NCBI GenBank assembly: GCA_963807165.1
Contig: CAWDZM010000001.1
Span: forward strand, 198,306-262,305
Origin: an uncultured bacterium
Lineage (GTDB): Bacteria; Patescibacteriota; Minisyncoccia; UBA6257; 2-01-FULL-56-20
Direction: 5' to 3'
DNA length: 64,000 bases
Shown here in pieces: positions 4,247 through 57,675 of the stretch. How positions within the stretch are numbered: position 1 is the first letter of the stretch; each line of letters starts with the position of its first letter. Both the position numbers and the translations under genes were made by a program. The notes under the pieces are model-generated. The model made no database searches, had not been told where the DNA came from, and worked only from the letters and a program-made list of their open reading frames with translations.

Positions 4247-4969
4247 TTATAGGTTGGCTGAAAGGAGCTTTCGACGTGCGAGGCCAGCGGCAAAGACAAG
4301 CCCCGTTCCGAGCAGCATCAGAGACGAAGGTTCGGGCGTCGGTGCGACGGGGGTTAGGTCGATGGTAAGGCTTGGATCGATGGCATCTCCGCTTGTGGGC
4401 AATGCCGACAATGTGATGGTATAGGTGTCGGCGGCATTGGGGTTAAAGCTGAGCGGTGTCGCTAGAAACGCGAAGCCGAGATTCTCAGCATTCTGAAATC
4501 CATCGTCGCCCGGCTGCATCGCGCAACCCGAGCAGACAATTCCAGAACCGTTGGCCTGACCGTTGTCCGGCAACAGCGTTGGATTGAAGGAGACTACCGC
4601 GTTTGTTGTGTCGTTTGCAATGATCAGGTTGTAGGTGTACGCGCCCAAAGGGTCGCTCCCGGTATTCACGGAGAATGCGAAATCCCAATTGGCGAGCGTG
4701 CCAGCGTTTGGCGAATAGTAGTAGTCGTTCGTCGTTGGCGTGATCGGCCCCACAAAGCGGGTAATCGCTTCGAGCCCGAGTTGCAGAGTGCTTCCATCCG
4801 AATTTGTCGCAGTGAGTACATCCCAGCCGGCGTTGACGTTTCCGGTTCCAAAGTAGACCCCGGGGTTAGACAGACTGGAGTTGAAGGTCTCATCCGCGTG
4901 TGCAGTTGCCAATGTGGCTCCTCCCATCGCGGCCAAGGCCAAGAACAACATAAACTTTTTACTTTTCAA
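4247..4969 (-). CDS. Secreted PEP-CTERM domain protein
   Basis: Signal peptide. C-terminus is TPEPSS + hydrophobic helix + RRK. Confidence 0.7.
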   Translation of the reverse strand: MKSKKFMLFLALAAMGGATLATAHADETFNSSLSNPGVYFGTGNVNAGWDVLTATNSDGSTLQLGLEAITRFVGPITPTTNDYYYSPNAGTLANWDFAFSVNTGSDPLGAYTYNLIIANDTTNAVVSFNPTLLPDNGQANGSGIVCSGCAMQPGDDGFQNAENLGFAFLATPLSFNPNAADTYTITLSALPTSGDAIDPSLTIDLTPVAPTPEPSSLMLLGTGLVFAAGLARRKLLSANL

Positions 4970-8646: not shown

Positions 8647-9666
8647 ATGAAACACTCCGAGAAATTCATTTTTTTATTGGTGGTGATTGGCGCGATTTTT
8701 TTTGCCCGCCTTATCTATCCGAATATTTCCGGCGTGCCATCATTCGCGAGCACCGACCCACCACAGTCCGCTGACGCGCAGATAATCACCGCGCCACCAA
8801 CGCTCGTATTGCCACAAACCTCTGTAAGCGATGCGGGCGGCGTCGGATCCGGCGGTGCGAATGCGGGCGTGGATAAAAATGAAAATGCCAGCGGAACAAT
8901 GGCGGTCACAAATTCTGTTTTCTCTCGCATCAATGACACGCCGCTTCCGAGCTTCGATAATACAGCCTACATGATAGCGGATCTTTCGACCGGCGCTGTG
9001 CTCTCCGGCGCAAATACCACGACGCGCTGGCCAACCGCATCGCTTACCAAGCTCCTCACGGCGACACTGGTATTTGATCAACTGAGCACAAGTACCAAGA
9101 TCACTATCACTCCGGAGATGTTCGCGGCGGATCCGACGGAAGAAACGCTCGTCGTCGGCGGTACGTACACCGTTGAAGATCTTCTCCATGTGATGCTGAT
9201 GCCATCCAGCAATGTTGCCGCACAGGCATTCGCGGATTATATCGGTCAAACACAATTTATGAACGAGATGAATGCTCGTGCACAACAGTGGGGGATGACC
9301 GATAGCTACTTCGCCGATCCATCCGGCATTTCCGCCGCAAATGAATCAACCGCAAATAATCTTTTGATCCTCGCCCAACATGTCTATAATAATTATCCAG
9401 GCATTCTCGCGATCACGGATACGCACCAAACGACGATCACGGAATTGAACAGTGGCGAGAAGGTGGCCGTAACGAGTATCAATGATTTTGCGGGTGAACC
9501 GGGATTTGTTGGCGGAAAAACAGGCCACACCACCCAAGCAGGAGGCAATCTTTTATCGATTTTTAATGATGATGGACATCCGGTGTTGATCATCGTGCTC
9601 AACACGATCGATCGCTTTGGAGACACATCAAAGCTTTACACCTGGTTCCGGGCGAACTATAAATAA
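8647..9666 (+). CDS. dacA: D-alanyl-D-alanine carboxypeptidase (S11 penicillin-binding protein)
   Basis: SxxK (ASLTK), SxN (SSN) and KTG (KTGHT) motifs. N-terminal TM. Confidence 0.8.
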   Translation: MKHSEKFIFLLVVIGAIFFARLIYPNISGVPSFASTDPPQSADAQIITAPPTLVLPQTSVSDAGGVGSGGANAGVDKNENASGTMAVTNSVFSRINDTPLPSFDNTAYMIADLSTGAVLSGANTTTRWPTASLTKLLTATLVFDQLSTSTKITITPEMFAADPTEETLVVGGTYTVEDLLHVMLMPSSNVAAQAFADYIGQTQFMNEMNARAQQWGMTDSYFADPSGISAANESTANNLLILAQHVYNNYPGILAITDTHQTTITELNSGEKVAVTSINDFAGEPGFVGGKTGHTTQAGGNLLSIFNDDGHPVLIIVLNTIDRFGDTSKLYTWFRANYK

Positions 9667-9677
9667 ATTATAACGAT

Positions 9678-10740
9678 ATGGTACTTATGCATTCCCTATT
9701 GCTCAGCGAAGCGGTGCGCGTCACTATTTTGACGACGATATCATTCGTGGTCGCGCTCCTCGTTACACCGCTGTGGTATAAGTTCATCATCAAATATAAA
9801 TTCGGGAAGCAGTTGCGTAATGGCGCGGAAACGCCGGTATTTGCGGAGCTCCATAAGAATAAAGCCGGCACGCCGACGAGCGGCGGCATTATCATCTGGA
9901 CAACCGTGATCGGTATGGCGATCATCTTCGATGTCATGCGTCACATTTTTGGCGGCGGATGGAATTATTTTAACTTCGTTGATCGCGCGGAAACCTATCT
10001 GCCGATCGCGGCATTCCTTATCGCTGCATTGCTTGGACTGCTCGACGACTGGCTTAATGTACTTAAAATTGGCGGCGCGCCAGGCGGGGGATTAAAAATT
10101 CGCCAGAAGGCGATTGGTACGTCTAATCATCGCGCTCATCGGCGCATGGTGGTTCTACTTCCGCCTTGGATGGAACGTACTCACCATCCCGTTCGTTGGT
10201 AATATTACGATCGGCTGGTGGTATATCCCTATATTTATTTTTATCATTTTTGCCGCAGCATTTTCTGCAAACGAAACCGATGGCTTGGACGGTCTCCTTG
10301 GTGGTGTATCGCTCTTTGCGTTCGTGTCGCTCGCCACGGTCGCATTTGTTCTGCACGACTATAACCTTGCCGCATTTTGCGGAGCCGTCATCGGAGCACT
10401 TCTCGCATTCCTGTGGTTTAACATCTATCCGGCAAAATTTTTTATGGGAGACACCGGCTCGATGTCGCTCGGCATTACGATCGGCGTCATCGCAATGCTC
10501 ACCAATACCACGCTCATCCTTCCATTCTTTACCATCATTCTCGTCGTCGAATCACTTTCCGTCATCATCCAGGTAATCTCCAAAAAATTGCGGCGAGGAA
10601 AGAAAGTATTCCGCTCCGCGCCGATCCATCACCACTTTGAAGCACTCGGCTGGCCCGAGTCGCAAGTTACCATGCGTTTTTGGATCGTCTCCGCGGTATT
10701 CTGCGCACTCGGACTCGTTATATTCTTCCTTTCTCACTAA
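9678..10740 (+). pseudogene. mraY: Phospho-N-acetylmuramoyl-pentapeptide transferase MraY, with a +1 frame break near 10120. Probably a 1-nt insertion artefact.
   Basis: Two ORFs (9678..10202 and 10114..10740) together cover MraY. Removing one nucleotide restores the frame. Confidence 0.8.
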
Positions 10741-10820
10741 GAATTAATTATTAAAATAAGATAAAAAAATGGAAGGCACGATGTGTGTCTTCCATTTGCT
10801 CCATGGCCGAGGCCGAGATG

Positions 10821-11417
10821 CTACAGGTTGTGTTGTATGAGGCGCGGTTGGATGCTGAAGCGCCGAAGGCCGAAGGCGAAAGCCAGCAGGCCGGAACCGA
10901 GTAAAAGTAATGATGATGGTTCCGGAACTGGCGGCGTTGCTATTTCTGTCAGTGTAAATGTCCCAGGCGTCTGGACGAAGGTGCTCTCGAGAATGGTATC
11001 GCCAGCAAAGATGTTTATCTGAACGCCGTCGGTGGCGAGAAAGAGAACTCCAGCCGAATCGAGTTCTTCTCCCCCAGATCCAGGAAAAGAGAACTTGTTA
11101 TCAAAGAAACAATTTCCTCCGGCTGGGCACAATACTGCCCCGGGGAAATATCCATCTGCCGGGCCCGCGTTGTTGCTGGTCGGATTGAGCGAACCGGTTG
11201 TCCCCGTCGTTAGAAAAAGTGGATCGCCATCAACTACAAGCACCGTGCCGTCGGTGGCCTGATATTGGCCATCGCCAAGAGGTACAGCGGTAAGAGTGCC
11301 TGTCAGAATGGGCGTTTCGTCTGGTGCCGTAAAGGTGAATGTGAAGCTGTCAGCGACAGCCGCACGAGATGCGATCCCGAGAACTGCGATCGCGAGAAGT
11401 GCAGGAATTTTTTTCAT
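10821..11417 (-). CDS. Secreted PEP-CTERM domain protein
   Basis: Signal peptide. C-terminus is VPEPSS + hydrophobic helix + RR. Confidence 0.7.
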   Translation of the reverse strand: MKKIPALLAIAVLGIASRAAVADSFTFTFTAPDETPILTGTLTAVPLGDGQYQATDGTVLVVDGDPLFLTTGTTGSLNPTSNNAGPADGYFPGAVLCPAGGNCFFDNKFSFPGSGGEELDSAGVLFLATDGVQINIFAGDTILESTFVQTPGTFTLTEIATPPVPEPSSLLLLGSGLLAFAFGLRRFSIQPRLIQHNL

Positions 11418-13235: not shown

Positions 13236-14021
13236 ATGGCAAAACGTTGGACTCACAGCGAGGAGCTATCTTACGGTGATCAATTGCGGAAGTTATATCT
13301 ATTGGAAAATAGAACCATTTCTGATATCGGTTTGATATTAAATATATCGCCGAGTGCGGTATACCATCGGCTGATAAGACTAAAAATTCCGGTTGTGCGA
13401 GAGAAAAAAGCTCATTATTTAAATCGTCGATCGGATATTATTATCCCAACGCACCATTCCAACACTCTCGCAGAAATTTTTGGCATCATGTTGGGCGATG
13501 GGAAATTATCTCATTACCAGACTATGGTCACGCTGGGGAATAAGGAGGAAGTATACGCCAAGTATGTCGCCGAACTGCTCATTAAAATTTTTGGGGTTCA
13601 TCCAAAAATAATTACCGACCCTCATAAAGGTTATCGAACGGTTTATTTAGGATCAACGGAAATAGCAGCGTGGTTGGTAAGCGAAGGATTGGTATATAAT
13701 AAAGTTGCGTCACAAGTTGATGTTCCTCTGTGGATACTGGATAAAGAGCAATATATGAAACGATTCGTTCGTGGATTTTTTGATACCGACGAATCGATCT
13801 ATAAATTGAAATATGGCGCACAATTATCTTTTACCAATTATTCCGTCCCGTTGCTTATATCTTTACAATGGCTACTAAGACGGTTAGGATATAGAGTGTC
13901 CGAAATAAGCGGACATCGATTTTATCTTACCAAACAAGGCGAGATAGAAAGATTTTTTAAAGAGATCGGCCCGTGCAACCCAAAACACGTCAAGCGATTT
14001 AATCTCTTTATTAATTCTTAA
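13236..14021 (+). CDS. LAGLIDADG homing endonuclease, double-motif, with an N-terminal HTH. Its stop codon lies 11 nt before tRNA-Tyr.
   Basis: Motifs IFGIMLGDGKL and FVRGFFDTDESI. Paralogous to 5124..5780. Confidence 0.8.
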   Translation: MAKRWTHSEELSYGDQLRKLYLLENRTISDIGLILNISPSAVYHRLIRLKIPVVREKKAHYLNRRSDIIIPTHHSNTLAEIFGIMLGDGKLSHYQTMVTLGNKEEVYAKYVAELLIKIFGVHPKIITDPHKGYRTVYLGSTEIAAWLVSEGLVYNKVASQVDVPLWILDKEQYMKRFVRGFFDTDESIYKLKYGAQLSFTNYSVPLLISLQWLLRRLGYRVSEISGHRFYLTKQGEIERFFKEIGPCNPKHVKRFNLFINS

Positions 14022-14032
14022 TATAAGCTCAT

Positions 14033-14116
14033 GCGTCGGTGGCAGAGCGGTCAAATGCTCGAGACTGTAAATCTCGCGCCCTATGGGCTACGCAGGTTCG
14101 AATCCTGCCCGGCGCA
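14033..14116 (+). tRNA. tRNA-Tyr (anticodon GTA), long variable arm
   Basis: Cloverleaf folded by hand. Anticodon loop CTGTAAA, T-loop TTCGAAT. CCA is not encoded. Confidence 0.85.
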
Positions 14117-14135
14117 CACATAGAAAAGAAAAAAC

Positions 14136-41816: not shown

Positions 41817-42785
41817 CTATAGTCTTCCAGAAATTTCAAATCGATTGAGAATATATTGACGGTTGTCAAAAATTTCTACATGCCCATAATCAGCGTTAGC
41901 CTGGATACGAAAATTATTGAGTTCGAGAGCTCTTTTTACAACATACATCCCAATACCTAGCCCATCTATGCCTTTGGCATGCTTACCCCTAAATCGCAAG
42001 TTGAAAATCTTAGTAAGCTCCTCTGGCTCAATTCTTAAGCTTATCATGCCTATTGTTAATTTAAATTCCCCTCCTTCGATTTCAAAATAAAATCGTATAT
42101 CTGAATTAGGCTTTACATACTTAAACGCATTATCAAGAAAATTATAAAAAGCTGTGTTAATTGTTTTATAATCTAATTTTATTTTATTTGCCTCCGCCAT
42201 CGAGTCAGCGAACCAAAAACTCGGTTTAACCCACGTTTTATTTGATTGATCTTCGAATGCATGAAGTACTTTAATTATAATATCGCGAATATTATGTGGT
42301 CGGATATCAAGCTGAATCTCCTCGCCCATATTGATAATTTCAAAGCTTGCCATATGAGCATCGATTTCTACTATTCTCTGTTGTAGATTAATCAAAATAT
42401 CCGCGACCCCTTTGGTATCAGCTTTTATGTCAGCGATCACTATTTCCCTTTGTTCTTGAAAATCCTTATTCGCGAACTTGCGATAATCTACGATCCCTTC
42501 TATTTTCTGTTTTAATTGTCCTTGTAATTTTATTAGACTGTGAGAATGTTCTTTTATTTGATCAATAAAACCATCCTCGATTGAAAAAATGATCGGGCTA
42601 CTAACCTCGACCACTTTCCGTAATATTTTTGATCGCTTTACAAGTTCAAGATCGTCGGTGATAAACTCAATCACCCCGTCGCCTATCTGAAATTCTCTAA
42701 TGGCATAACCAGATTCATTAAAATTATCTGGTATATTCGTGGAGACAACTTCTCCGTCTGAAGTTTTTCTCCGATAGAAAGTCAT
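41817..42785 (-). CDS. Cytoplasmic histidine-kinase-like ATPase (GHKL HATPase_c) with an uncharacterised N-terminal domain. AT-rich island.
   Basis: N-box LDNAFKYV, G1-box GIDGLGIGM, and a possible H-box EIDAHMASF. No TM segments. Confidence 0.55.
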   Translation of the reverse strand: MTFYRRKTSDGEVVSTNIPDNFNESGYAIREFQIGDGVIEFITDDLELVKRSKILRKVVEVSSPIIFSIEDGFIDQIKEHSHSLIKLQGQLKQKIEGIVDYRKFANKDFQEQREIVIADIKADTKGVADILINLQQRIVEIDAHMASFEIINMGEEIQLDIRPHNIRDIIIKVLHAFEDQSNKTWVKPSFWFADSMAEANKIKLDYKTINTAFYNFLDNAFKYVKPNSDIRFYFEIEGGEFKLTIGMISLRIEPEELTKIFNLRFRGKHAKGIDGLGIGMYVVKRALELNNFRIQANADYGHVEIFDNRQYILNRFEISGRL

Positions 42786-43240
42786 TTAATTTTACTCAGC
42801 TCCGATTCAATCATAGAAATAAATTCTGACGTTTCGGAATTTTTTGACATTTGATTATCAGCCACTCGCATATCCACGCTCAATTTAAATCGCCCATATG
42901 CAGAATATAGAATCACTCTTTTCTTATCGCGATACGCATTCTTAATTGCCCGAATTACACTTATACCCTGCTCTTTTTCTGATAATTTATCACCGACTCC
43001 TTTATAGTCGACGAAAATAATATCTGCTCTTTTTATATTTTCGTCTTGGATATTAATAATGTCATTTATTTTCCTTACTGCCCACCCCGCTTTTTGTAAA
43101 TTTTCAACAACCGGGCACTCGGAATCATCAATGAAAAGAATGTTCGCTGAAATTTTATCCAATTTCTTTTTGCGCCGAAACGGCCACCAAAAATTGGGCT
43201 TGAAATCTATGTCTACGTTGACTACGTTAAAATCGCCCAT
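42782..43240 (-). CDS. Stand-alone receiver (REC)-like domain protein. Its stop overlaps the kinase start (ATGA). AT-rich island.
   Basis: ILFIDD (acidic pair), IIFVDY (phospho-acceptor Asp), ILYSA (Thr/Ser). ~30-aa N-terminal extension. Confidence 0.5.
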   Translation of the reverse strand: MGDFNVVNVDIDFKPNFWWPFRRKKKLDKISANILFIDDSECPVVENLQKAGWAVRKINDIINIQDENIKRADIIFVDYKGVGDKLSEKEQGISVIRAIKNAYRDKKRVILYSAYGRFKLSVDMRVADNQMSKNSETSEFISMIESELSKIK

Positions 43241-45580: not shown

Positions 45581-47101
45581 TTATAGGGATTTTTTAAGCG
45601 TCCTCCCCGGAAGCGCCGACTGGAATTCATTCTCTTTTTCCACCACCTTTCCGTTTACGATAGTAAACTTTACTTCGCCGCCACGGAAACATACGAGGTC
45701 GGCATAATTCCCCTCTTTGATCGCTCCCCTGCCCGCGATGCCGAAAAGGCGTGCCGGATCGAGCGTTATTTTTCGGATCGCATCCTCGAATGACATCGAT
45801 TTCTTTTCCTCAACGAGCGAGAGAAATGCGGAGAATGTGGCGATCGCGCGATCGGACTTAAAATGTTTTATCCCCGTCGCGCGATCGCCGACGCTCGGCG
45901 CATTCGATGCGATAAGGCTGCGCGGTGAAGCGATCGCGCGAGCGATCAGATCCGCATCAAGATTCTTATAAAGCACCGTGCCCTTGAGCTGTAGCGCCTG
46001 CATCAACCGCAACAGCACATCGCGATTATCATCCACTTCATAAATATCTTTGATCTCCCTCAGTGACCGGCCGACGAGAATCTCGTTGCCCGGCGCTTGC
46101 GCAATAATAAAATGATCCTCGTCAATATCCGGAATATCTTTTTTGATGCGCGGGAGCAACCACTCATCGTTGATGTTCTGCCGCATCACGGCAAGGCCGC
46201 CGTTCTGTACCCACTCCGGCAAAAAAGTGTAAATAGGCAAAAGCGAGTTGGCCGACGGAGAAATATCAAAACGCAGATCGATCTCTGGCGGCAGATCATT
46301 GATCAACACAAGCGCTTCCTCATATTCCTTTTCCGCACCGACGACCGGCGCAAAATGGCTGATGATCGTCGAGACGCCCGTCTCACGCGCAAGCTTGAGC
46401 GTTTCTTCCACCGCCTCCTTTATCCCCACACCTTCATTACGTAAGTGCGTCGCATACACGCCGTGATATTTTTTTACGATCTCCGCGAGCGTGCGCAATT
46501 CCGCGTACGGCGTCTTTCGCGCATGCACATAACTCAGTCCGGTTGAAAGCCCGAATGCACCCTCGGCAAGCGCCGCTTGGAGCGTACGTGCAAAGACACC
46601 AAGTTCGTTTTTGGTAAGGTCGCGCAACGCCTCGCCCACGATCGCACGGCGGATGGTAGCATGCCCCACGAGCGTGCCAAAGTTCACCGCAGCAGGATGT
46701 TTCTCCATCACCTTCAAGAATTCTGCCATCGTGTGCCAGTTCACATTGATACGATCGGTGTCTCCCCATTTTTGCAGCGTTTCAAGACTGCCATAGAGCA
46801 ACGGCGCGAGCGACGCTCCGCACATCCCGCCCATGATCGTGGTCACACCCTGCCGGATAAAATCCTCCTGGCTCGGATTGTCGAACAACGTTAAATAGTG
46901 ATCCGAATCTGTATTGCAATCGATAAATCCCGGGCCAAGATATGCGCCTTGCCCATCGAGAACGACGTCAGCTTTTTTATTGGAAAAATTGCCGATGGCG
47001 GAGATCTTATTATCGCTCACAAAAACATCGCGAGGCTCTGCGGTGGCACCCGCGCCACGCGTGCCACCAACAACTTGCACGTTCTTAATAAGAAGTGTCA
47101 T
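45581..47101 (-). CDS. Amidohydrolase-3 family protein (N-acyl-D-amino-acid deacylase-like)
   Basis: D-aminoacylase-like architecture (GFIDCNTDSDH ... catalytic domain ... C-terminal beta-sandwich). Confidence 0.6.
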   Translation of the reverse strand: MTLLIKNVQVVGGTRGAGATAEPRDVFVSDNKISAIGNFSNKKADVVLDGQGAYLGPGFIDCNTDSDHYLTLFDNPSQEDFIRQGVTTIMGGMCGASLAPLLYGSLETLQKWGDTDRINVNWHTMAEFLKVMEKHPAAVNFGTLVGHATIRRAIVGEALRDLTKNELGVFARTLQAALAEGAFGLSTGLSYVHARKTPYAELRTLAEIVKKYHGVYATHLRNEGVGIKEAVEETLKLARETGVSTIISHFAPVVGAEKEYEEALVLINDLPPEIDLRFDISPSANSLLPIYTFLPEWVQNGGLAVMRQNINDEWLLPRIKKDIPDIDEDHFIIAQAPGNEILVGRSLREIKDIYEVDDNRDVLLRLMQALQLKGTVLYKNLDADLIARAIASPRSLIASNAPSVGDRATGIKHFKSDRAIATFSAFLSLVEEKKSMSFEDAIRKITLDPARLFGIAGRGAIKEGNYADLVCFRGGEVKFTIVNGKVVEKENEFQSALPGRTLKKSL

Positions 47102-49087
47102 TACTGTTTATTATACAACAAAAATATGGTTGTATCGCTCGCATCAGGGCTGTGGGCATGTGCTTCATCGGGCGCCGTGATATCGATCTCACCACCGGAG
47201 CCAAAGCGGATCCTATCCCCTGCACCAACCGTGATAAGGGGGATATGCTTTGCCTCAATCATATTCGCAAACTGAGTCCATTCGGCGCTATGCGAGTCAT
47301 CGCTTCGACCGTTATAGAGAAATGCGCCGACGCTATAATGCTGGAGTACATATTGATAGCCTTCATAATCGGACACCTCTGGTGCAGGAATGATCGCAAG
47401 GTCAATATATGTCGCCGCGCCGGATGGCAATGTTTTTTGGAGATCGTCCACGATGGTGGCATCCGAACCCGCATCGGTGAGCACTGTCGCTCCACCCGGT
47501 AACACGAGTAGAGTAGACGTAGCATGCGTAAGCGGCAAAGAATATACATGCGGGGCAACAGAATTCCGCGCAGTAAAAATAGTCCTCCACATCATAAGAT
47601 CGAGTGCGAAGAGTGCAAGAAGAATGATCGCGCTTATGACATCAATTATTTTCTTGTGATGGTGCGCCATAATAATAAGTAACGATAATGATCATTCCAA
47701 AATAGAATGCGGTGACGAATGCCGAGCCGAAGACTGCCGGCATCGGCACCACGATCGCGGCAAAGGCATGGATGATAAATAATTCATATTGCAAAAATAT
47801 GCTCACGACTCGCGCCGCGCAGAATGCGAGTGCCGGAGAGGCAAACCCAAACAACACCATAAGCGCCCCGAATCCGATCACCGCGGCCCACGGGATCATG
47901 ATTAAAATATTAGAGACGAATGACGTAAGCGAAAATTCTCCGAACGTATTCATAACAATGGGGAGAATCGCAAGGTTGGTGGCGAGAGAAAGCATCGCGT
48001 GTTCTTTCCATTGCAATACTCCGCCATCCGTCCAGTGAAAATAATGATTAATCGCCGGACCGAGATAATAAATACCGAGAAAGCTGAGGAATGAGAGTTG
48101 GAACGCCGCATCAGTGAGCAACGTCGCATTCAAGAGCACCATGCCAAGCGCGGCAAACGTGACTGCATTGCGCGCGCTGAATACTCTGCCCGTTCCGCGT
48201 GCGACGATGGCGAACGATCCCATCACGGCCGCGCGCACCGCGGAGATCGCGCCGCCGGACGCCATAACAAATAGTGCTACCACCCCAAGTGTTACCCACA
48301 GCAACGCCCGGCGCGATAAACGATCCTTCAATGCCACGGCGAGCGCGGCCGTGATGAGCGCGATCTTATATCCATACATATTGACGATATATGACGTACC
48401 CGACGATTCCATTTGTGCCTTGAGTGTTGCGCTCACGGTGCCGGTCGTACCAATCAAAATCCCTGCCAACAGCGCCGCCTGATCCGGCGGTAATAATTGC
48501 GCAATCTTCGCCACAATCGCCGCCTTGAAATTTATCAACACCTCCTTTATCCAATATCCTTGATGCTGGGCGATAACCCGCATCGGTGGCAAAAACATGG
48601 CCAGCGGCTCGCCCGCATCGCTCGCATCCTTGGATACGCTTACCGATCCTTTTATCCATAACTCATCGCCATAATGAAACTCTGTATTATTCGGCGTCGT
48701 GAAAATATCTAGCGTACCGGCATATGGCTGTGCAAGGGTGATGACGAGCATCGTAAAATTACCGGCCGCCTTTGGTTCTTCCGCCACAACACCAAAAAAT
48801 GCCACGCCTTTTCCAGCCGGAAGATGCGCATGCGCCGTCTGCCAGTCAATGTAGGTATGGTAATAAATAACGCCCGCACTGGCAGCAAGAAAAAATAGTG
48901 CAATATACTTCCAAAATCCACTACGATAAAAAAATAATATGGCAGATGCAATGAAAAAAAATATAGCGAGCGCTATCGTGATCCTAAACGACCAAAAATC
49001 CCATCTCCTATTCGCTGCAAAGATCCCAAAAAGAAACACCACGGCAACGCCAAAGAAAATATCCCCCGCTCTTATATATGTGCGCAT
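47101..49087 (-). pseudogene. comEC: DNA internalisation competence protein ComEC/Rec2, split at ~47655 between the competence domain and the metallo-beta-lactamase domain. Probably an extra A in a homopolymer.
   Basis: Competence membrane domain plus MBL-like domain. Deleting one A in gaaaat fuses them in frame. Confidence 0.7.
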
Positions 49088-49168
49088 GCATCCATCATAC
49101 TCACGCGGGATTAAAAGAATATAAAAAACGGCGTAGCTCTATAAAAGAGCCACGCCGGTGGATACATT

Positions 49169-49588
49169 TCATGCACATACCCCCTCAACCACATCAACCG
49201 CCTTGAGGTATTCATCGAAATCTTCCCATTGCCGTTCGGTCAGCATGTCTATCGGTAAGGCACCATGCCTTTGAAGAAACCTCCATCGTTTCATGCATTC
49301 AATCCGTGCGGCAAAAAGCTGACTCTGTGTCGCATTTACATTGCCTTGATAGAACTTCTCTTCGATCGGTGAGAGTTTTTCTTTCTTTCTTAGCGAAAGT
49401 CTTTCACGTTCTCCCTTGCGACGCCGCACCGCGCTTCGAAAAAACTCAAGTTCATTGAGATTCCTTTGAATCTTTTCTTGCTTCCGTTCCGCGTAATAGC
49501 TGCGGATGGCCTGACCAACTCCTTTCGTAAATTTTGATAAACTTGCGAAAATAGTCGCGCCGTTGATAAGAACAATGACTGCAGACAT
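49169..49588 (-). CDS. Hypothetical protein
   Basis: 139 aa, basic, coiled-coil-like. Confidence 0.3.
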   Translation of the reverse strand: MSAVIVLINGATIFASLSKFTKGVGQAIRSYYAERKQEKIQRNLNELEFFRSAVRRRKGERERLSLRKKEKLSPIEEKFYQGNVNATQSQLFAARIECMKRWRFLQRHGALPIDMLTERQWEDFDEYLKAVDVVEGVCA

Positions 49589-49630
49589 ACCTAACCTCCT
49601 CGATTTTCAAGCTTCCGCAGATATTGTATC

Positions 49631-50299
49631 CTATTTTTCACTTACCCGCAACCCCTTGCGCCATTCGGTGATCTTCTTGTGATTGCCAGAAAGGAGCACC
49701 GGTGGCACATTCCATTTTTTCCCTTTTGTAGGAGAAAAAACCTCCGGGCGTGTATAGGTCGGGAATGAACCATTGATCTCTTCAAGCGATTCTTCTTTTC
49801 CTAAAAAACCAGGGAGCTGGCGACTGACCGCTTCCATGAGCGCGAGCGCGGGAATCTCGCCGCCGGACAGGACAAAATCTCCGATCGAGATTTCCTCATC
49901 GGTAATATGGTGCGCCACGCGCTCATCCACGCCTTCATACCGGCCGCAAATCAGAATAAGATCATCATATTTCGCCAGACGTCGCGCCACGGCCGCATCC
50001 AAATGCTTTCCACGGGTAGAAAACAACACTACGCGCGTTTTACGTTTTTTTAATGTTTTTTGCGTGGCTGTTTTTATCTTCTTTACCGCATCATAGATGG
50101 GCTGGACAGACAGCACCATCCCCGGGCCACCGCCAAACGGACGATCGTCCACTTTCCGATGCTTATCTTTGGTAAAAGAGCGAAGGTCGTACGCGCGCAC
50201 GGCGATGATCTTATTTTTTTGCGCACGTTTAAAAAGCGATTCGCCAAGATACGAATCGAACATGCCAGGGAACACGGTGATGATATGAAAACGCATCAT
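49631..50299 (-). CDS. trmD: tRNA (guanine37-N1)-methyltransferase
   Basis: SPOUT TrmD motifs. Confidence 0.9.
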   Translation of the reverse strand: MMRFHIITVFPGMFDSYLGESLFKRAQKNKIIAVRAYDLRSFTKDKHRKVDDRPFGGGPGMVLSVQPIYDAVKKIKTATQKTLKKRKTRVVLFSTRGKHLDAAVARRLAKYDDLILICGRYEGVDERVAHHITDEEISIGDFVLSGGEIPALALMEAVSRQLPGFLGKEESLEEINGSFPTYTRPEVFSPTKGKKWNVPPVLLSGNHKKITEWRKGLRVSEK

Positions 50300-52143
50300 G
50301 CCGTTGGCGCGTCCCCTTCCGACTGCTTCTTTAACGATTCATTGATAGAACGGCGCAGGGCGTCGATATCCACTTTCTGCCGGACATATTGTTTTGGCGC
50401 GGTCGTGGGGGCAACCACAGGTGCTTCAGCTGTAGACGCGTCGTTAATCTTGACGCTCGCATCAGTAACGGTGTCAGTATCAACAACACTGTCAATTTTT
50501 TTAGGGATATTTACTGGAGGAATACTCTGCGGCACAGCATGTGGCACGGGCTGGGGTGCCGTTGCGCGTACCGGCGGAACAGACGCGGAACTGGGTGCGG
50601 ATACCACGCGAGGTGCTGATACCGATTGCAACGGTGGGATTGAGGCAGGAATATGATGAGTTGGGGCTGATGAAGTCGAGGCCGGAGTTGACGTTGCCGT
50701 TCGCGGCGCAGTCGTGCGCGAAGTGCGGAAATCACCGCCCGCGCCGTAGCCGGTACGCGGCGCATCCGGTCGCAATACCTGCGAAAGCGACTTCTCATCG
50801 CGCCGCCCGATCTTCTCGTTGATCACGGCATCGCTCTGGCCATTCCACTCGCTCGCGATCCGCTCGTCCACAATCTTGCGCGGCACCGCATAATGTTCAC
50901 GGGTATTCTTGATGATGATATCTTTATAGGATTGCAACGGCTGGATATGTGGCGGAAGCGTCGTAGCGGAAAACGGCTTTGAAGAAACGCCGTCGATCAT
51001 CAGTTTGATATAAATATTTGCCTTCGCGAGGTTGACGAGGTCGTTCTGCAAAAATTCAGGCATGAATTCCTTTTCAAGAAACTCGCCATCGGCGGCGCCG
51101 ACACGGAATGTAATGATCGTGCCGACGTTACCGAACACCGCGTCGCGTACTTTTGTGTTGCCATCGTTCGAGACGAGCTGTCCGATATATTGGTGCGCGA
51201 GCGTCAGCGAGAGGCGATATTTGCGCGCCTCGGAAAGGATGCTCGCGAATGAATCCGTCGCAAAGTTTTGGAATTCGTCCACATACATGTAGAAATCGCG
51301 GCGCTTCTCCTCCGGAATATCCACGCGGGACATTGCTGCCAACTGCAAGCGCGAGATGATCATCGCCCCGAGCAATGCGGAATTGTCCTCCCCCATCTTT
51401 CCCTTTGAAAGATTGACGATAAAGATCTTTCCCGTATCCATGATCTCGCGCATATTAATAGTAGAGCGCGACTGACCCAAAATATTTCTGATCAGCGGAT
51501 TAGAAACGAACTGTCCCACTTTATTTTGAATGGCAGCAAGCGCCTCAGTTTCAAGTTTTTGCGAATACCGCGCGAACTCGTTCTGCCAGAATGCCTTGAT
51601 GACCGGATCCTGCAGATTGTCCACGATCTTTTTGCGGTACGGCGGCTCGGCGAACATCCTCAAAACGCCCAACAGAGTTGAGTTCGGGAGCTCGAGTAAT
51701 GCGAGCAGGGTGTTGTTCAAAATATATTCCATACGAGCGGACCACGCGTCCACCCAGATCTTTTTGAATACGCCCATGATACCAGACGCAACGAGGTGGC
51801 GGAATTCCGTACCCACCTGCTCCATCGGATTGAACGCAATTGGGAATTCCATATCCGACGGATCGAAATAGATCACATCATCCAACCGATCCTCGGGAAT
51901 ATAGTCGAGCAATTTTTCTGCAGACTCGCCGTGCGGATCCAGGAACGCGATGCCGCGGCCGGCCTCGATGTCCGCGATCGCCATATTCTCAAGCAAGGTG
52001 GATTTTCCAACGCCGGTCTTTCCTACCACGTAGACGTGGCGACGGCGGTCATCAAATTTGATACCAAATTTTTGATCGCTATTACCGCGATAGTTATGAT
52101 AGCCGATCGGCGTAATGTCGCTAGGTGATTTTCCGTTTGCCAT
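50296..52143 (-). CDS. VirD4/TraG/TraD-family (type IV coupling protein-like) P-loop ATPase, cytoplasmic, with a C-terminal Pro/Ser/Thr/Ala-rich disordered tail
   Basis: Walker A VGKTGVGKST, DPHGE, Walker B MYVDEFQNF, and a TLAHQYIGQL motif. Confidence 0.55.
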   Translation of the reverse strand: MANGKSPSDITPIGYHNYRGNSDQKFGIKFDDRRRHVYVVGKTGVGKSTLLENMAIADIEAGRGIAFLDPHGESAEKLLDYIPEDRLDDVIYFDPSDMEFPIAFNPMEQVGTEFRHLVASGIMGVFKKIWVDAWSARMEYILNNTLLALLELPNSTLLGVLRMFAEPPYRKKIVDNLQDPVIKAFWQNEFARYSQKLETEALAAIQNKVGQFVSNPLIRNILGQSRSTINMREIMDTGKIFIVNLSKGKMGEDNSALLGAMIISRLQLAAMSRVDIPEEKRRDFYMYVDEFQNFATDSFASILSEARKYRLSLTLAHQYIGQLVSNDGNTKVRDAVFGNVGTIITFRVGAADGEFLEKEFMPEFLQNDLVNLAKANIYIKLMIDGVSSKPFSATTLPPHIQPLQSYKDIIIKNTREHYAVPRKIVDERIASEWNGQSDAVINEKIGRRDEKSLSQVLRPDAPRTGYGAGGDFRTSRTTAPRTATSTPASTSSAPTHHIPASIPPLQSVSAPRVVSAPSSASVPPVRATAPQPVPHAVPQSIPPVNIPKKIDSVVDTDTVTDASVKINDASTAEAPVVAPTTAPKQYVRQKVDIDALRRSINESLKKQSEGDAPTA

Positions 52144-52158
52144 ATAATAATTATCCCG

Positions 52159-53454
52159 CTATTCCTCGATAATAGGAAGCGATGCCGGCGGACTGCCACG
52201 GCGCGACTCCACTTTTTCGAGCTCGGTCGTTGACACCACCGCCAATGGGAAATGGAAAATGGTCGCCAGCTCCTCTATATTAAGGATTGATTCGTGATGT
52301 GCTGGAGAAAAATGCCGATACGCCTCATAGATATGATGTTTGCGTGCCCGAATACGGGTCTGTTTGAATAATGGCCCCTTCACCGAATACGATGCAGTGT
52401 TGGTCGGGCTGTCCGGCTTCAGCGAATTTAAATTCTGCGTATTGAATTGACGGATAAATCCATGAATGGAATTCGTATGGCCTGCGTTTGTGGATTCTTC
52501 CTTTTTCTCCAGATAAATAAACCGAAGTGTCGCCTCAAACGCGATCTTGGATATTTTGAGATGGATCGCATCCGCGCGCTCTTTATCCACCGGCGTCATC
52601 AAGAAGCGGGGCAATTTTTCCTGCTTTGCATCCTTACTCGACTTCGCTTCGCCGGGATGCTCAAATGGCCCGCGGATGATCTCACTCGGAGTAAGGCCCA
52701 AATCGAACTTTGGCCACAGACTCTGCTTTTTCGGCTCCTCGATACCAAGTAATTTTTTAATTTCCTTCTCGCCTTCGGTGCGAAATGCCTCACCAGTCGG
52801 CTTGATCACCACCTGAAACCATAGTTGTTCATTATCTTTTAACTTCGACATCGCCTCCATGAGCGGGGCAATCGTATCGATACGGTGCTCTTCCACCGCT
52901 TCTTCGAACATTGGGTAGGTACGGATCGGCAGATAATTTTCATGCCGCAACACTTCCTCCAGTCCGGAAATGTCGAAGGTCTCATTGGGGAAGGTATGTG
53001 GCAGTTCTTCCAAATAATCTTCCGCTTCCGTGATCTCGGCTTCCGGATACGCCGCGTAGATCGCCGACTCCATCATATTCCGATATTGCGTCGGCACGCG
53101 AAGATAAAAATGCGTCTCGCCGGCGCGGGCGACAAGCTCGAACACCATCCAGTATTCATCCTGCCCTTGTACATATTTCTTAAATGGCGGGATACCATAG
53201 GTATACGGCGCGTGCGCAGCAGCAAAAATCTGCTCCATTGCTTTTGGAGTTTTAAGAATTGTCTTTGGAACTTTGATCTCGAGCAACTTCCACTTAATAC
53301 CGGTGACCCATTTATAATGGAGGTGTAAAAGCCAAGATTCCCATAAAATGATGATGGCGATGATCGGCAATGCGATCCACCACACCAACCCCCACACAAC
53401 GAGGATGCTTTGAATAATGCCGGATAAAATAGTGCCCATATATACTATTATCAA
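52159..53454 (-). CDS. Membrane protein (N-terminal TM hairpin plus a ~380-aa cytoplasmic domain) immediately upstream of the VirD4-like ATPase. Possible partner.
   Basis: Start/stop juxtaposition with the ATPase on the same strand. Confidence 0.4.
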   Translation of the reverse strand: MIIVYMGTILSGIIQSILVVWGLVWWIALPIIAIIILWESWLLHLHYKWVTGIKWKLLEIKVPKTILKTPKAMEQIFAAAHAPYTYGIPPFKKYVQGQDEYWMVFELVARAGETHFYLRVPTQYRNMMESAIYAAYPEAEITEAEDYLEELPHTFPNETFDISGLEEVLRHENYLPIRTYPMFEEAVEEHRIDTIAPLMEAMSKLKDNEQLWFQVVIKPTGEAFRTEGEKEIKKLLGIEEPKKQSLWPKFDLGLTPSEIIRGPFEHPGEAKSSKDAKQEKLPRFLMTPVDKERADAIHLKISKIAFEATLRFIYLEKKEESTNAGHTNSIHGFIRQFNTQNLNSLKPDSPTNTASYSVKGPLFKQTRIRARKHHIYEAYRHFSPAHHESILNIEELATIFHFPLAVVSTTELEKVESRRGSPPASLPIIEE

Positions 53455-53502: not shown

Positions 53503-54534
53503 TTAGGATTCCCGAACGCGATATTTTCCGTCGTTCATGCGCTCGAAGAAATTCCGATTCTGAAGATTGATGAGGATTGTGTTCTGCTTAAAGAAGCGCT
53601 GGGCGTTGACATGGGTGACAACATCGGTCGGTTTGAGTGGACCCTTCATCTTCAAGACCTTGGCGATGACCTCGCGCGCAGTACCGGCTTCGTATCCATT
53701 CTCTTTAAGTCCGTACATACCGCGACCAACGAGCACAAAGCGCGGGTCTTTGATGAGCTCGTTATGTACGGTCGGCGCAAGTGCCTTCTGATCGTCAAAT
53801 CCGACTTTATTAATGTGCGTCGCAATGTCCTCAAAGTGCAACGGTTCGTTTTTCTTTTTGAGTACCAGATAGATCTTGTCGCGCACGGTTGCCGGATTGA
53901 TCTCCGCCCATTCGTTCAAGCCCATATCGCCGTATGGATTCTTGTCGATCTGCTTCGAGATGCTCAGATAGTTTTCGGCGATCTCCTGCGCAACGGACTT
54001 TGTTTTGACAAAGCTCGCGAGCTGAATCTGATATGAATCAGTGAACACTTTTTCCTTGTGGCTCTTTAGGAAACCAACCCAACCGTTAACGAACGTGCTC
54101 GCAGTTTTGAGGTCTTTGTCCGTAACATAATAGAACGGGTGGAATGCATCATCTTCGCGATGAAGATTGAATACGCCCGAGGCCTCGGCGAGAAAATCGA
54201 GATGGTTCTCGCGGACGCCGCTCGTGAGCGTCGTCGTATAGCGAACCACATCTGCCTTGCTCAACACGCCGCCCCGCGCGGAAATGAATTTCTTTACCTT
54301 ATCCAAAATGACGCCCGCTTCCGGATTCTTTGAAATATTGGCTTTGACGAGCACAATCGCGCCATTTTCGATCTGACGTACGCGCTCACGGGTCACGCCT
54401 AAACGATCGCCGATCGCAGCGAGTGTTTCGCCGTCCGTCTTGCCGTCCAAACCAAACCGAGCCGTAATAACCTCCTTTTGGCGAGGATTAAGGCCGTTAA
54501 GCGATGTAGTGATGAGTTTTGTGATGGATGCCAT
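53503..54534 (-). CDS. DNA-binding protein with an N-terminal sigma-70 region-4-like HTH and two HARE-HTH-like modules
   Basis: Region-4-like LGVTRERVRQIE. Repeated LVLKKKNEPLHFEDIATHI / AKVLKMKGPLKPTDVVTHV patterns. Confidence 0.45.
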   Translation of the reverse strand: MASITKLITTSLNGLNPRQKEVITARFGLDGKTDGETLAAIGDRLGVTRERVRQIENGAIVLVKANISKNPEAGVILDKVKKFISARGGVLSKADVVRYTTTLTSGVRENHLDFLAEASGVFNLHREDDAFHPFYYVTDKDLKTASTFVNGWVGFLKSHKEKVFTDSYQIQLASFVKTKSVAQEIAENYLSISKQIDKNPYGDMGLNEWAEINPATVRDKIYLVLKKKNEPLHFEDIATHINKVGFDDQKALAPTVHNELIKDPRFVLVGRGMYGLKENGYEAGTAREVIAKVLKMKGPLKPTDVVTHVNAQRFFKQNTILINLQNRNFFERMNDGKYRVRES

Positions 54535-54695
54535 AGGTTTTTATGTATCGGTAATATTGTATATTATAGTAAGATATATGTCAAGCGGCACATCCAACAC
54601 TGGACTCCCCTCTCAATTTATCCTAAAGTATTGTAATTCATATTAAACTAAATTACAAGCACAGTCAAGAAATCTGGGGATAACCTGCACGATCA

Positions 54696-56858: not shown

Positions 56859-56909
56859 TGGAAATGATTATAACAGATTGTTTTGGAAGAACAAGGGCTG
56901 CCTCTGTTG

Positions 56910-56990
56910 TGCGCGGGAGAGGATTCGAACCTCCACGCCTTTCGGCACACGCACCTCAAGCGTGCTCGGCTACCATTACGACACCCGCGC
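56910..56990 (-). tRNA. tRNA-Leu (anticodon GAG), long variable arm
   Basis: Cloverleaf folded by hand. Anticodon loop TTGAGGT. CCA is not encoded. Confidence 0.8.
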
Positions 56991-56991
56991 G

Positions 56992-57675
56992 TTATATTGT
57001 CAGCTTCTTATTTATTACCGCCAACGCATCTTCGATCTTTTTGCGCTTTCGGGATAAACAAACCACCTCGGGATTATAATACATCTTTGGTAATAATTTC
57101 AATGACTCAGCCTTCGCATATTTTATTTCATACATGGGAGCCTTCCCCGTCTTTGTAATATGACCCTTTATCGCTAATCTCCGAAGTATTCCCTCCCGTA
57201 TCCATACGATATGTTTTTCGCTGGCAGACATAAAAACCGTGTAAAACATATAGCTTGATCGCCAGCGGGGGTCCCAATATGAGTAGAACGTTCCGTCACC
57301 GTCGAAATGGCCACGAAGGAAATCGAAGAAATATTCGGGTGGAATATCTATACTCCCGATTATTTTCGATTTTTGCGGCATAATGCCGATGCTATTAAGA
57401 AAATTGCAAAATGCGACATCGCCAACCTGAAGATTAAAGTATTTTTTCTCTCTATTCGATCCGCTGCTTTTCATTCCAATTTTGTTCGTAATACCCAAGC
57501 ACCCCATAAAATTTTTCATCTGCTCTTCATCTTTTGAAGTAAAATTTATCATTTTGCGATTGGAGTATATGCATCCATCCGTCACTAAAAGCCCGATTGC
57601 GTAGGCAAATTCGGGCGACCATCGTATTGCGATCTTATGTTGCGGATGCATACCCGACCCTACCACACCGCACAT
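56992..57675 (-). CDS. LAGLIDADG homing endonuclease, double-motif. Its stop codon lies 1 nt before the 5' end of tRNA-Leu.
   Basis: Motifs AIGLLVTDGCI and FLRGHFDGDGTF. Confidence 0.75.
   Translation of the reverse strand: MCGVVGSGMHPQHKIAIRWSPEFAYAIGLLVTDGCIYSNRKMINFTSKDEEQMKNFMGCLGITNKIGMKSSGSNREKKYFNLQVGDVAFCNFLNSIGIMPQKSKIIGSIDIPPEYFFDFLRGHFDGDGTFYSYWDPRWRSSYMFYTVFMSASEKHIVWIREGILRRLAIKGHITKTGKAPMYEIKYAKAESLKLLPKMYYNPEVVCLSRKRKKIEDALAVINKKLTI

Follow-up and report, generated by a model that had tools for sequence, protein, structure and literature searches.

The 64,000-nucleotide stretch of DNA analysed here (the window) comes from an uncultured member of the Patescibacteria, and it contains two adjacent genes whose products are well supported as the halves of one membrane-anchored ATPase. 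The downstream gene (50296..52143, minus strand, in the list of open reading frames, ORFs) encodes a VirD4/TrwB-class ATPase of 615 amino acids (aa) that resembles type IV coupling proteins (T4CPs) and lacks a transmembrane (TM) segment. The gene directly upstream (52159..53439, minus strand) encodes a membrane subunit of 426 aa that belongs to the Pfam family PF26449 (DUF8128). All coordinates are positions within the window, and all ORFs of the locus lie on the minus strand. With high confidence, the pair can be described, in structural and evolutionary terms, as a split membrane-anchored VirD4-class ATPase whose membrane subunit has the fold of the VirB4 N-terminal domain. The explanation as a whole, namely that this ATPase of the type IV secretion clade may serve a type IV secretion system (T4SS) encoded elsewhere, is held with moderate confidence.

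Homologues of the ATPase are already known in this group. In a survey of 3,035 Patescibacteria genomes, 5,713 VirD4-like homologues were found in 2,918 of them, and only 148 were located near virB4 (Quinonero-Coronel et al. 2025, PMC12102498). The window ATPase is very probably one of these published orphan T4CP homologues. For the DUF8128 partner and its VirB4-like fold, the evidence from fused forms, the conservation of the operon and the motif at the C-terminus, no earlier published account was found, and the literature search gave no mention of the name DUF8128. The Patescibacteria represent a large share of bacterial diversity and are host-dependent, and a T4SS is essential in the one species that is genetically tractable. 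On the reading given here, a family of a domain of unknown function present in at least 565 species would gain a structural role as the half of a split VirD4-class ATPase that lies near the membrane and resembles VirB4, and the “orphan” T4CP homologues would be two-part machines with a conserved operon partner.

The ATPase and its membrane subunit

A preliminary description of this DNA, made from the sequence alone, had likened the ATPase to T4CPs, and the profile searches agree with it: TrwB_AAD_bind, TraG-D_C and DUF87 all matched, and TrwB was the best relative by both sequence and fold. The Pfam matches, which all exceeded the gathering cut-off, were T4SS-DNA_transf (2e-9), DUF87 (6e-7), TrwB_AAD_bind (9e-7, covering residues 31–349) and TraG-D_C (5e-6). 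TrwB was the sole significant match among PDB sequences, for the single ATPase sequence and for a 47-sequence profile alike, and no VirB4 chain in that collection was matched by the profile at E up to 10. Likewise, none of the VirB4 families in Pfam and NCBIfam (CagE_TrbE_VirB, AAA_10, P-loop_TraG and the TIGR VirB4/TraC models) matched the ATPase. The NCBIfam model of CedD matched weakly, in the region of the P-loop (E 5.6e-6), and scored 25 where the cut-off is 600. As judged from the sequence, the protein is a distant T4CP branch that lies outside every named NCBIfam equivalog (TraD, CD1115-family VirD4 and CedD).

Fold comparison of the ATPase model gave the highest scores for TrwB (18.3), DndH-C (17.8), DotL (17.0) and the C-terminal domain (CTD) of VirB4 (16.7). 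Lower scores were obtained for Cagbeta (14.3), HerA (at most 12.9), TcpA (8.8) and FtsK (8.3). Together with the T4CP family matches, the lower scores of HerA and FtsK set the protein apart from FtsK- or HerA-type ATPases unrelated to secretion. A role as an FtsK analogue was considered separately and is unlikely, as the model fits the FtsK fold poorly, TM7x has an annotated ftsK, and the counterpart of the ATPase in Southlakia is non-essential. A controlled comparison was made with systems in which a VirB4 and a T4CP occur together, and the ATPase profile was tested against each. In an Embleya plasmid, hhalign aligned the profile with the protein in the T4CP position at E 2.7e-43 (381 columns) and with the adjoining VirB4 at 2.7e-4. 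In Bacillus phage G, gp156 was matched at 3e-38 and gp155 at 5e-5, the latter over the P-loop only. The ATPase belongs to the VirB4/VirD4 clade and stands on its VirD4 side.

The protein resembles VirD4, TrwB and TraD in its nucleotide-binding domain, which is of the same family, in its TraG-D_C region and in a C-terminal tail that varies, and a predicted helical insertion lies at the corresponding place. The Walker A motif VGKTGVGKST occupies residues 40–49 (51997..52026), DPHGE starts at residue 69, and the Walker B motif DEFQNF occupies residues 289–294 (51262..51279). In 47 homologues, G41, K42, T43, G44, G46, K47 and T49 of Walker A are invariant (at least 80% conserved across the loci described below), as is the whole Walker B region Y287–T296 (YVDEFQNFAT), which suggests that the ATPase is probably active. 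In the AlphaFold2 (AF2) model, eight helices lie between the strand at residues 90–93 and the strand at residues 240–244, and the pLDDT of this block is 51–83, mostly at least 69. The all-helical insertion (residues ~112–236, 51436..51810, from the AF2 secondary structure) sits at the position of the T4CP all-alpha domain, although the model is moderate and the VirB4 CTD has a helical bundle there too.

The absence of a TM domain, which had been noted earlier, is borne out by hydropathy, as the highest 19-residue Kyte–Doolittle mean in the ATPase is 1.37, below TM grade. This does not exclude membership of the T4CPs, because a subclass of coupling proteins without a TM domain, each paired with a neighbouring membrane protein, is recognised (PMC7434980). 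The window pair resembles such proteins, for instance TraJ with TraI of pIP501, in that the membrane-protein gene lies directly upstream and the two are co-conserved; the reported abutment of the genes corresponds to an intergenic gap of 15 nt. It differs from the small membrane partner of the pIP501 type, as the DUF8128 protein has 426 aa and a cytoplasmic domain of ~350 aa that resembles the VirB4 N-terminal domain.

In the last 175 residues of the ATPase (441–615), P, A, S, V and T are abundant. The disordered tail of about 170 aa, rich in Pro, Ser, Thr and Ala, that had been proposed is thus present, but it is not featureless. It consists of a low-complexity linker, probably disordered to judge from its composition (residues 441–590, 50374..50823), followed by a conserved C-terminal motif, VDIDALRRSINESLKK (residues 591–606, 50326..50373, from the alignment across loci). 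When ATPases of more than 430 aa, from 71 loci, were aligned (overall lengths ~455 to 879 aa), the linker proved gapped and variable, and its length differs between species. At the end of the protein, most loci share the consensus (V/I)(D/N)(I/V)xxL(R/K)xA(I/L)xxSLxK, and one subgroup ends in ...GE(V/I)(V/I)KF. The motif VDIDALRRSINESLKK is a candidate for a tethered peptide that binds a partner.

The assignment of the upstream protein to DUF8128 comes from a precomputed PF26449 tag that P0001, an identical database protein, and most homologues carry. No match to this protein came from local scans with Pfam, NCBIfam or PADLOC, and only the tag and the PHROGs collection were informative. The family has 1,737 matches in a 90%-clustered database and 2,463 clusters at 50% identity, and relatives occur in at least 565 species-representative genomes. 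The best 150 of the 2,463 clusters are all stand-alone proteins of ~400–550 aa, barring a few shorter fragments. The ORF list also offers a TTG start at 53454, which would give 431 aa (52159..53454), but the ATG at 53439 is the probable start because the database homologues, including P0001, have 426 aa.

An AF2 model of the DUF8128 protein, built on a 107-sequence alignment (pLDDT 90.4, pTM 0.86), consists of a long N-terminal helix, an alpha/beta domain and a less ordered C-terminal tail. The hydrophobic stretch at the N-terminus, ~41–46 residues long, is modelled as a single unbroken helix at residues 2–47 (53299..53439, pLDDT 93–97), and 19-residue Kyte–Doolittle means reach 2.63 over the first ~45 residues. 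This predicted membrane anchor may be a single pass or, as had been described earlier, a hairpin. In 26 closer homologues (alignment A1), W16, W20, W21 and W33 of the helix are invariant and P25 is nearly so. The cytoplasmic alpha/beta domain (residues ~50–395, 52255..53292) matches the fold of the VirB4 N-terminal domain when the model is compared with known structures, and the DUF8128 profile found no real match among PDB sequences; the relation to VirB4 appears, in the model, at the level of the fold only. The N-terminal domain of VirB4 is membrane-proximal and contacts VirB3 and VirB8. The window pair nevertheless differs from VirB4 (TrwK of R388) with VirB3, as its ATPase matches VirD4-type families and its DUF8128 subunit has no detectable similarity in sequence to VirB4. 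Two pGO1 proteins, TrsD and TrsE, were considered as relatives of DUF8128 and were ruled out (hhalign E 0.44 for TrsD and 0.63 for TrsE).

Near its C-terminus, the DUF8128 protein carries the motif LNIEELATIFHFP (residues 386–398, 52246..52284). The alignment of 107 diverse sequences shows no variation at A392, H396 and P398 and hardly any at E389, E390 and L391. The motif aligns in phage G gp156 (residues ~300–320), SPO1 gp27.4, a Natrinema plasmid protein and a protein of the Clostridium botulinum plasmid pCLK, and in the one-piece homologues it closes the DUF8128-like half, before the ATPase domain.

The split coupling-protein unit that had been suggested is strongly supported by single-chain homologues that cover both proteins in order. 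The profile phrog_5156 (824 positions, function unknown) matches DUF8128 at 75–213 (1e-10) and the ATPase at 388–805 (2.8e-51). In gp156 (825 aa), residues 30–320 align with the DUF8128 profile (hhalign probability 98.5%, E 3.9e-15) and residues ~372–764 match the ATPase. SPO1 gp27.4 (906 aa) matches the DUF8128 profile at E 1.6e-7. In a Foldseek search of viral models with the DUF8128 model, gp156 was found at 9.5e-18, a 913-aa homologue of phage JL at 5.5e-16, and the VirB4-like gp155 at 1.6e-6. The N-terminal extensions of the Embleya protein (812 aa) and the pCLK protein (800 aa) are collinear with DUF8128 and align with it weakly (6e-4 and 2e-4), and the pCLK protein is linked transitively through gp156. 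All of these one-piece proteins, which have been of unknown function in Bacillus phages and in clostridial and actinomycete plasmids, share with the window pair the same modules in the same order and the junction motif LNxxELaxxxHxP. The phage proteins are without the N-terminal TM helix; gp156 has a hydrophobic segment inside a loop that is variable in DUF8128, and SPO1 gp27.4 has no TM segment.

The split form exists in haloarchaea too, because a Natrinema plasmid encodes a 382-aa hypothetical protein whose gene overlaps the start of a 1,018-aa T4CP-like gene. Over almost its whole length, the 382-aa protein is a DUF8128 homologue (probability 97.4%, E 8.9e-12). A tblastn search of plasmids with DUF8128 gave no match, and the Natrinema partner surfaced through the ATPase match and then hhalign. 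No fused ORF was found among the best 150 DUF8128 representative matches or in the 80 patescibacterial loci described below, and the pair is therefore split throughout that sample. In the plasmid collection, the closest relative of the ATPase core is a 395-aa orphan on a Sulfitobacter mediterraneus plasmid (NZ_CP081110, 7004..8191 of the extracted locus L084; 40% identity, E 2e-88). It is flanked by a recombinase and transposases, and no DUF8128-like gene is annotated there. Horizontal transfer is a possible origin of this alphaproteobacterial orphan.

Unlike the window pair, the one-piece homologues are fused and are encoded by phages or plasmids beside genes for VirB4, VirB6/TrbL, VirB2, PrgI or Replic_Relax proteins. 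In phage G, gp153 is TrbL/VirB6-like and gp155 is VirB4-like; in SPO1, the next gene after gp27.4 is gp27.3, which encodes a Replic_Relax protein. The Embleya plasmid has the order PrgI(VirB3)-XF1762-VirB4-[812-aa T4CP]-Replic_Relax-NlpC/P60, and in pCLK a TrbC/VirB2 gene lies directly 5' of the one-piece gene. These are MPF_FATA-type or otherwise T4SS-like settings, and they fit the published origin of the patescibacterial T4SS from the monoderm MPF_FATA class (PMC12102498).

The same relatives bear on the idea that the pair might serve as a further assembly ATPase, of a divergent VirB4 type, which would power the biogenesis of a pilus or channel and not substrate coupling. The VirB4-like fold of DUF8128, its match to gp155 of phage G and the place of the pCLK homologue after a VirB2 pilin gene, where VirB4 is usually found, all speak for it, as does the fact that patescibacterial VirB4 is often accompanied by a separate N-terminal-like protein, TrsD. 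However, the ATPase is matched by T4CP families and by no VirB4 family or PDB chain, a separate bona fide VirB4 adjoins the homologue in both Embleya and phage G, and DUF8128 shows no similarity to TrsD or TrsE. Such a role is highly improbable.

Gene order in the Patescibacteria and the place of comEC

Conservation was examined in 80 loci from different species representatives, with DUF8128 identities to the window protein from 81% to 33% and with 10-kb flanks; the denominators given here count the loci with enough flank. The co-conservation of the membrane protein and the ATPase, left by the preliminary description as a point to check, is extensive: the ATPase gene lies directly downstream of the DUF8128 gene on the same strand in 72 of 77 loci. 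In 73 of 75, a gene for a protein with Sigma70_r4 and HARE-HTH domains (the HTH gene) lies directly upstream, also on the same strand. In the window it encodes 343 aa (53503..54534), and Pfam places Sigma70_r4 at residues 12–60 (3e-14) and HARE-HTH at residues 216–277 (3e-7). Farther upstream, a secD/secF cluster was found in 55 loci; upstream sequence of 4 kb or more is available for 56. The median identity to the window proteins is 66% for the ATPase core, 37% for DUF8128 and 39% for the HTH protein, so that the core is far more conserved than is usual for plasmid T4CPs.

All-against-all clustering of the 1,241 ORFs of these loci showed that the HTH, DUF8128, ATPase and secDF genes are the only near-universal neighbours. 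The next commonest, with housekeeping neighbours identified by signature motifs, were MnmA (23 loci), EF-P (22), the N-domain of ComEC (21), the metallo-beta-lactamase (MBL) domain of ComEC (17), AspRS (16), TrmD (15), Ndk (13) and SecA (10). The pair is a vertically inherited chromosomal core module with the order secD-secF-HTH-DUF8128-ATPase and not part of a mobile element. It differs in this respect from plasmid T4CPs, as its setting is one of housekeeping genes with no relaxase, VirB4 or T4SS gene nearby.

Several loci depart from this order. DUF8128 has no adjacent ATPase gene in L025, L032, L055 and L062, and in L041 the ATPase gene lies ~2.5 kb downstream. L032, L055 and L062 have no ATPase match at all in 10 kb of flank, and the flank of L025 is only 1.6 kb. 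The HTH gene is still upstream in L055 and L062, and the gene that follows DUF8128 in L055 belongs to a cluster that looks glycosyltransferase-like by eye. In the relative L001 (59% DUF8128 identity), the gene after DUF8128 (9321..10766) encodes 481 aa with a weak DUF87 N-terminus and transketolase domains, and tblastn recovered only 240 aa of the ATPase, at 89% identity. This product may represent an ATPase that was disrupted or fused, or it may stem from a chimeric assembly. A second, diverged ATPase paralogue (40–45% identity) occurs in L060, L050 and L072; in L060 it is in tandem (+2104 after DUF8128).

The conserved neighbourhood also bears on whether the pair could be a component of anti-phage defence or a remnant of a conjugative element or prophage. 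The PADLOC model mad8 of the MADS system does match (1e-14), and one-piece homologues are found in phages and plasmids. Nevertheless, the same housekeeping genes surround the pair across species, a setting unlike that of defence islands and mobile elements. In the window scans and the 80 loci, no gene nearby encodes a methyltransferase, nuclease, integrase or relaxase, and the GC content of the 50–54 kb region (0.48–0.52) equals the window average. Such an origin is extremely improbable. A defence system as suggested by mad8 and by the similarity to DndH-C was rejected on the invariant housekeeping synteny.

In the window, the pair is followed by trmD (49631..50299, ORF list), whose start shares 4 nt (ATGA) with the ATPase stop. 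The reported position of trmD between the pair and comEC is correct, but a further ORF of 139 aa (orf139, 49169..49588) lies there too. The product of orf139 has a hydrophobic N-terminus and no family, apart from a weak PADLOC match to 2TM_IV (E 0.007), and tblastn found no homologue in any of the 80 related loci. Promoters and terminators were scanned by consensus matches only. The best promoter-like site (TTGACA-17-TACAAT, 11 of 12 positions, 54556..54584) lies just 5' of the HTH gene, which is the probable first gene of the transcription unit; this site is a candidate only, because promoter-like sites are, in total, just as numerous as expected from shuffled sequence. The strongest terminator-like hairpin (49129..49157), with a 12-bp stem that is by far the longest of the region, 8 G-C pairs and a T-run, follows orf139 and precedes comEC. 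It probably ends the unit. The placement of these signals, together with a promoter-like site of its own in front of comEC, suggests that HTH, DUF8128, ATPase, trmD and orf139 form a unit apart from comEC.

The gene comEC (47642..49087, Pfam Competence, 3e-28) begins 1.2 kb downstream of the pair on the same strand, and this proximity had been taken as a possible mark of an uptake or transfer apparatus. The wider sample does not sustain this. Of 47 loci, 17 have comEC in the 10 kb downstream, and of the 39 with less than 45% DUF8128 identity, 10 do, which puts the gene in the same frequency class as MnmA, EF-P, AspRS and Ndk. As it is no commoner than these unrelated housekeeping neighbours, inherited housekeeping synteny is suggested. 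The 20 other window ORFs that were scanned are all housekeeping or envelope genes, and no pilus, T4SS or further competence gene was found among them.

A more specific form of this idea would make the pair the motor of DNA uptake by way of ComEC, pulling the DNA through the ComEC channel as ComFA does in Firmicutes. We know of no precedent for a VirD4-class ATPase that works with ComEC. The frequency of comEC near the pair, here and in the 17 loci, is above chance for genomes of ~0.7–1 Mb, and the ATPase family includes DNA translocases. The non-essentiality of the Southlakia counterpart SEML1_0293 is likewise compatible with such a motor, as comEC is dispensable for Southlakia growth too (PMC12102498). 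Against these points, 30 of the 47 loci, and 29 of the 39 more distant ones, have no comEC in the 10 kb downstream, and in the window the hairpin and the separate promoter-like site stand between comEC and the operon. Moreover, the relatives examined outside the Patescibacteria adjoin T4SS or relaxase-like genes, and none was seen beside com genes. A ComEC motor is thus very unlikely.

The statement that the two domains of ComEC lie in one locus holds in so far as two overlapping ORFs are present. However, the second of them (47101..47670), for the C-terminal MBL domain, is truncated and substituted at motif positions. It encodes 189 aa, compared with 287 aa in relatives, and reads ‘THATS’ and ‘APEVSDY’ where relatives read ‘GQGDS’ and ‘HPQLDH’. 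Because of this truncation and these substitutions, the nuclease domain of ComEC may be inactive in this genome.

Possible roles of the pair

In the mechanism proposed here, DUF8128 would supply the hydrophobic N-terminal anchor and a cytoplasmic domain with the VirB4 N-terminal-domain fold. The downstream protein would supply the VirD4/TrwB-type nucleotide-binding domain, the helical insertion, the variable disordered linker and the conserved C-terminal motif. The ATPase would assemble into a ring, like its relatives, and DUF8128 would hold this ring at the membrane, as is achieved within a single chain in the one-piece homologues. The ring would then spend ATP to recruit a macromolecular substrate, either DNA or protein, or to push it into a membrane channel. 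The tethered C-terminal motif may recruit a partner, by analogy with the tail of F TraD, which binds TraM (review PMC12857230).

The most likely channel partner would be the patescibacterial T4SS derived from MPF_FATA, encoded elsewhere. That the pair couples to such a system is a tentative proposal, for which we see slightly less than an even chance. Experimental data are available from Southlakia, where the T4SS gene cluster is essential for epibiotic growth and has no recognisable coupling and relaxase proteins (Wang et al. 2023). In that organism, the gene SEML1_0294 (annotated as ‘RpoS’) encodes an essential protein of 349 aa with Sigma70_r4 at residues 27–72 and HARE-HTH at residues 225–283 (Wang et al. 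2023, supplementary tables). Directly downstream on the same strand, SEML1_0293 encodes a protein of 921 aa with a “T4SS DNA-binding domain” and a P-loop domain at residues 361–795 (Wang et al. 2023). SEML1_0293 thus resembles the window pair in following an HTH gene of the same size and differs from it in being a one-piece protein. From synteny and domain coordinates, it is the likely one-piece counterpart of the pair, and it offers a directly testable candidate for phenotypes in DNA or protein transfer. A paralogue, SEML1_0142 (1,019 aa, P-loop at residues 381–800), is essential, and so is the small hypothetical gene in front of it, SEML1_0141 (Wang et al. 2023); SEML1_0142 may fill the coupling role in the Southlakia T4SS.

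A number of observations weigh against this explanation, some of them on the identity of the ATPase and others on its function. The best NCBIfam matches fell far below their cut-offs (SXT_TraD, 48 bits against 366; conju_CD1115, 37 bits against 250). The fold score of the VirB4 CTD is nearly that of TrwB (16.7 and 18.3), and the ATPase model is of moderate confidence (pLDDT 63) because its alignment is shallow, with all sequences at 74% identity or more. In pGO1, the T4CP (TrsK) and the VirB4 (TrsE) both match the ATPase weakly, so that this comparison is uninformative. No T4SS or relaxase gene was found in the scanned window ORFs or among the 10-kb-flank neighbours of the 80 loci. T4CP homologues are present in 2,918 genomes and VirB4 in 2,417 (PMC12102498), and some genomes therefore have the ATPase and no detectable T4SS. 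SEML1_0293 is non-essential in transposon sequencing (Tn-seq), with 82–120 insertions (Wang et al. 2023), and it is therefore not an obligatory part of the essential Southlakia T4SS. The DUF8128-like nature of its N-terminal ~360 residues is inferred from size and synteny only.

These observations lead to the question of whether the module was exapted for a job independent of any T4SS, which could be the handling of DNA at the membrane together with the HTH protein, or an export function linked to SecDF. Exaptation of T4CP homologues was raised by the authors of the genome survey (PMC12102498), and the wider spread of these homologues relative to VirB4 is in line with it. The HTH gene adjoins the pair in nearly all loci and secDF lies upstream in most, and the order of an HTH gene followed by a T4CP-like gene recurs in Southlakia. 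Furthermore, the ATPase core shows a degree of conservation that is unusual among T4CPs (median identity 66%, where DUF8128 has 37%) and typical of a core cellular function. Nevertheless, the HTH protein of Southlakia is essential and the adjoining T4CP-like gene is not, so their functions must be at least partly separable. The HTH protein also looks like a transcription factor or a protein associated with RNA polymerase, and it may either serve RNA polymerase in general or act as an adaptor that binds DNA for the ATPase. In reduced genomes, moreover, conserved gene order is weak evidence of function. A role apart from any T4SS is therefore considered unlikely.

Another way in which a split VirD4-class ATPase could act is suggested by archaea. 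CedD of the Sulfolobales is a VirD4-like ATPase that is encoded apart from its machine and is essential for DNA import (PMC11823120). The window ATPase resembles CedD and TedD of the archaeal Ced and Ted DNA-import systems in both the VirD4-like class and the separate location, and some of their orthologues lack a TM domain as well (PMC11823120). It differs in its partner, as no DUF8128-like protein has been described for CedD. The pair might be the patescibacterial counterpart of CedD, a motor that would import host DNA through a relaxase-less, pilus-bearing T4SS or another channel, and with it the joining of a VirB4-type N-domain to a VirD4-type motor might preserve an architecture intermediate between the two T4SS ATPases; this joint proposal is distinctly unlikely. 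If it were true, such import would feed nucleotide-auxotrophic epibionts and horizontal gene transfer. Irrespective of the role of the pair, the combination of a VirB4-type N-domain with a VirD4-type motor bears on the divergence of both T4SS ATPases, and it ties the patescibacterial pair to proteins of unknown function in Bacillus phages (SPO1 gp27.4 and phage G gp156) and in clostridial, actinomycete and haloarchaeal plasmids.

Other features of the window

Away from the locus, the GC content dips to 0.43, against ~0.50, at 41817..43240 (minus strand). This region encodes a 322-aa protein with HATPase_c as its only domain and an overlapping 152-aa ORF without a family, which may be a divergent two-component-like pair or acquired DNA. 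Two free-standing LAGLIDADG_3 ORFs (13236..14021, plus strand, and 56992..57675, minus strand) each directly adjoin a tRNA gene, tRNA-Tyr (14033..14117) and tRNA-Leu (56909..56990), respectively. A secreted protein encoded at 4247..4969 (minus strand), adjoining tRNA-Gln, has a C-terminal PEP-CTERM motif (Pfam, 1e-5), and similar signal-peptide-like N-termini are found in the ORFs at 2810..3499 (plus strand) and 10821..11417 (minus strand). PEP-CTERM motifs are usually tied to the exosortase systems of diderm bacteria.

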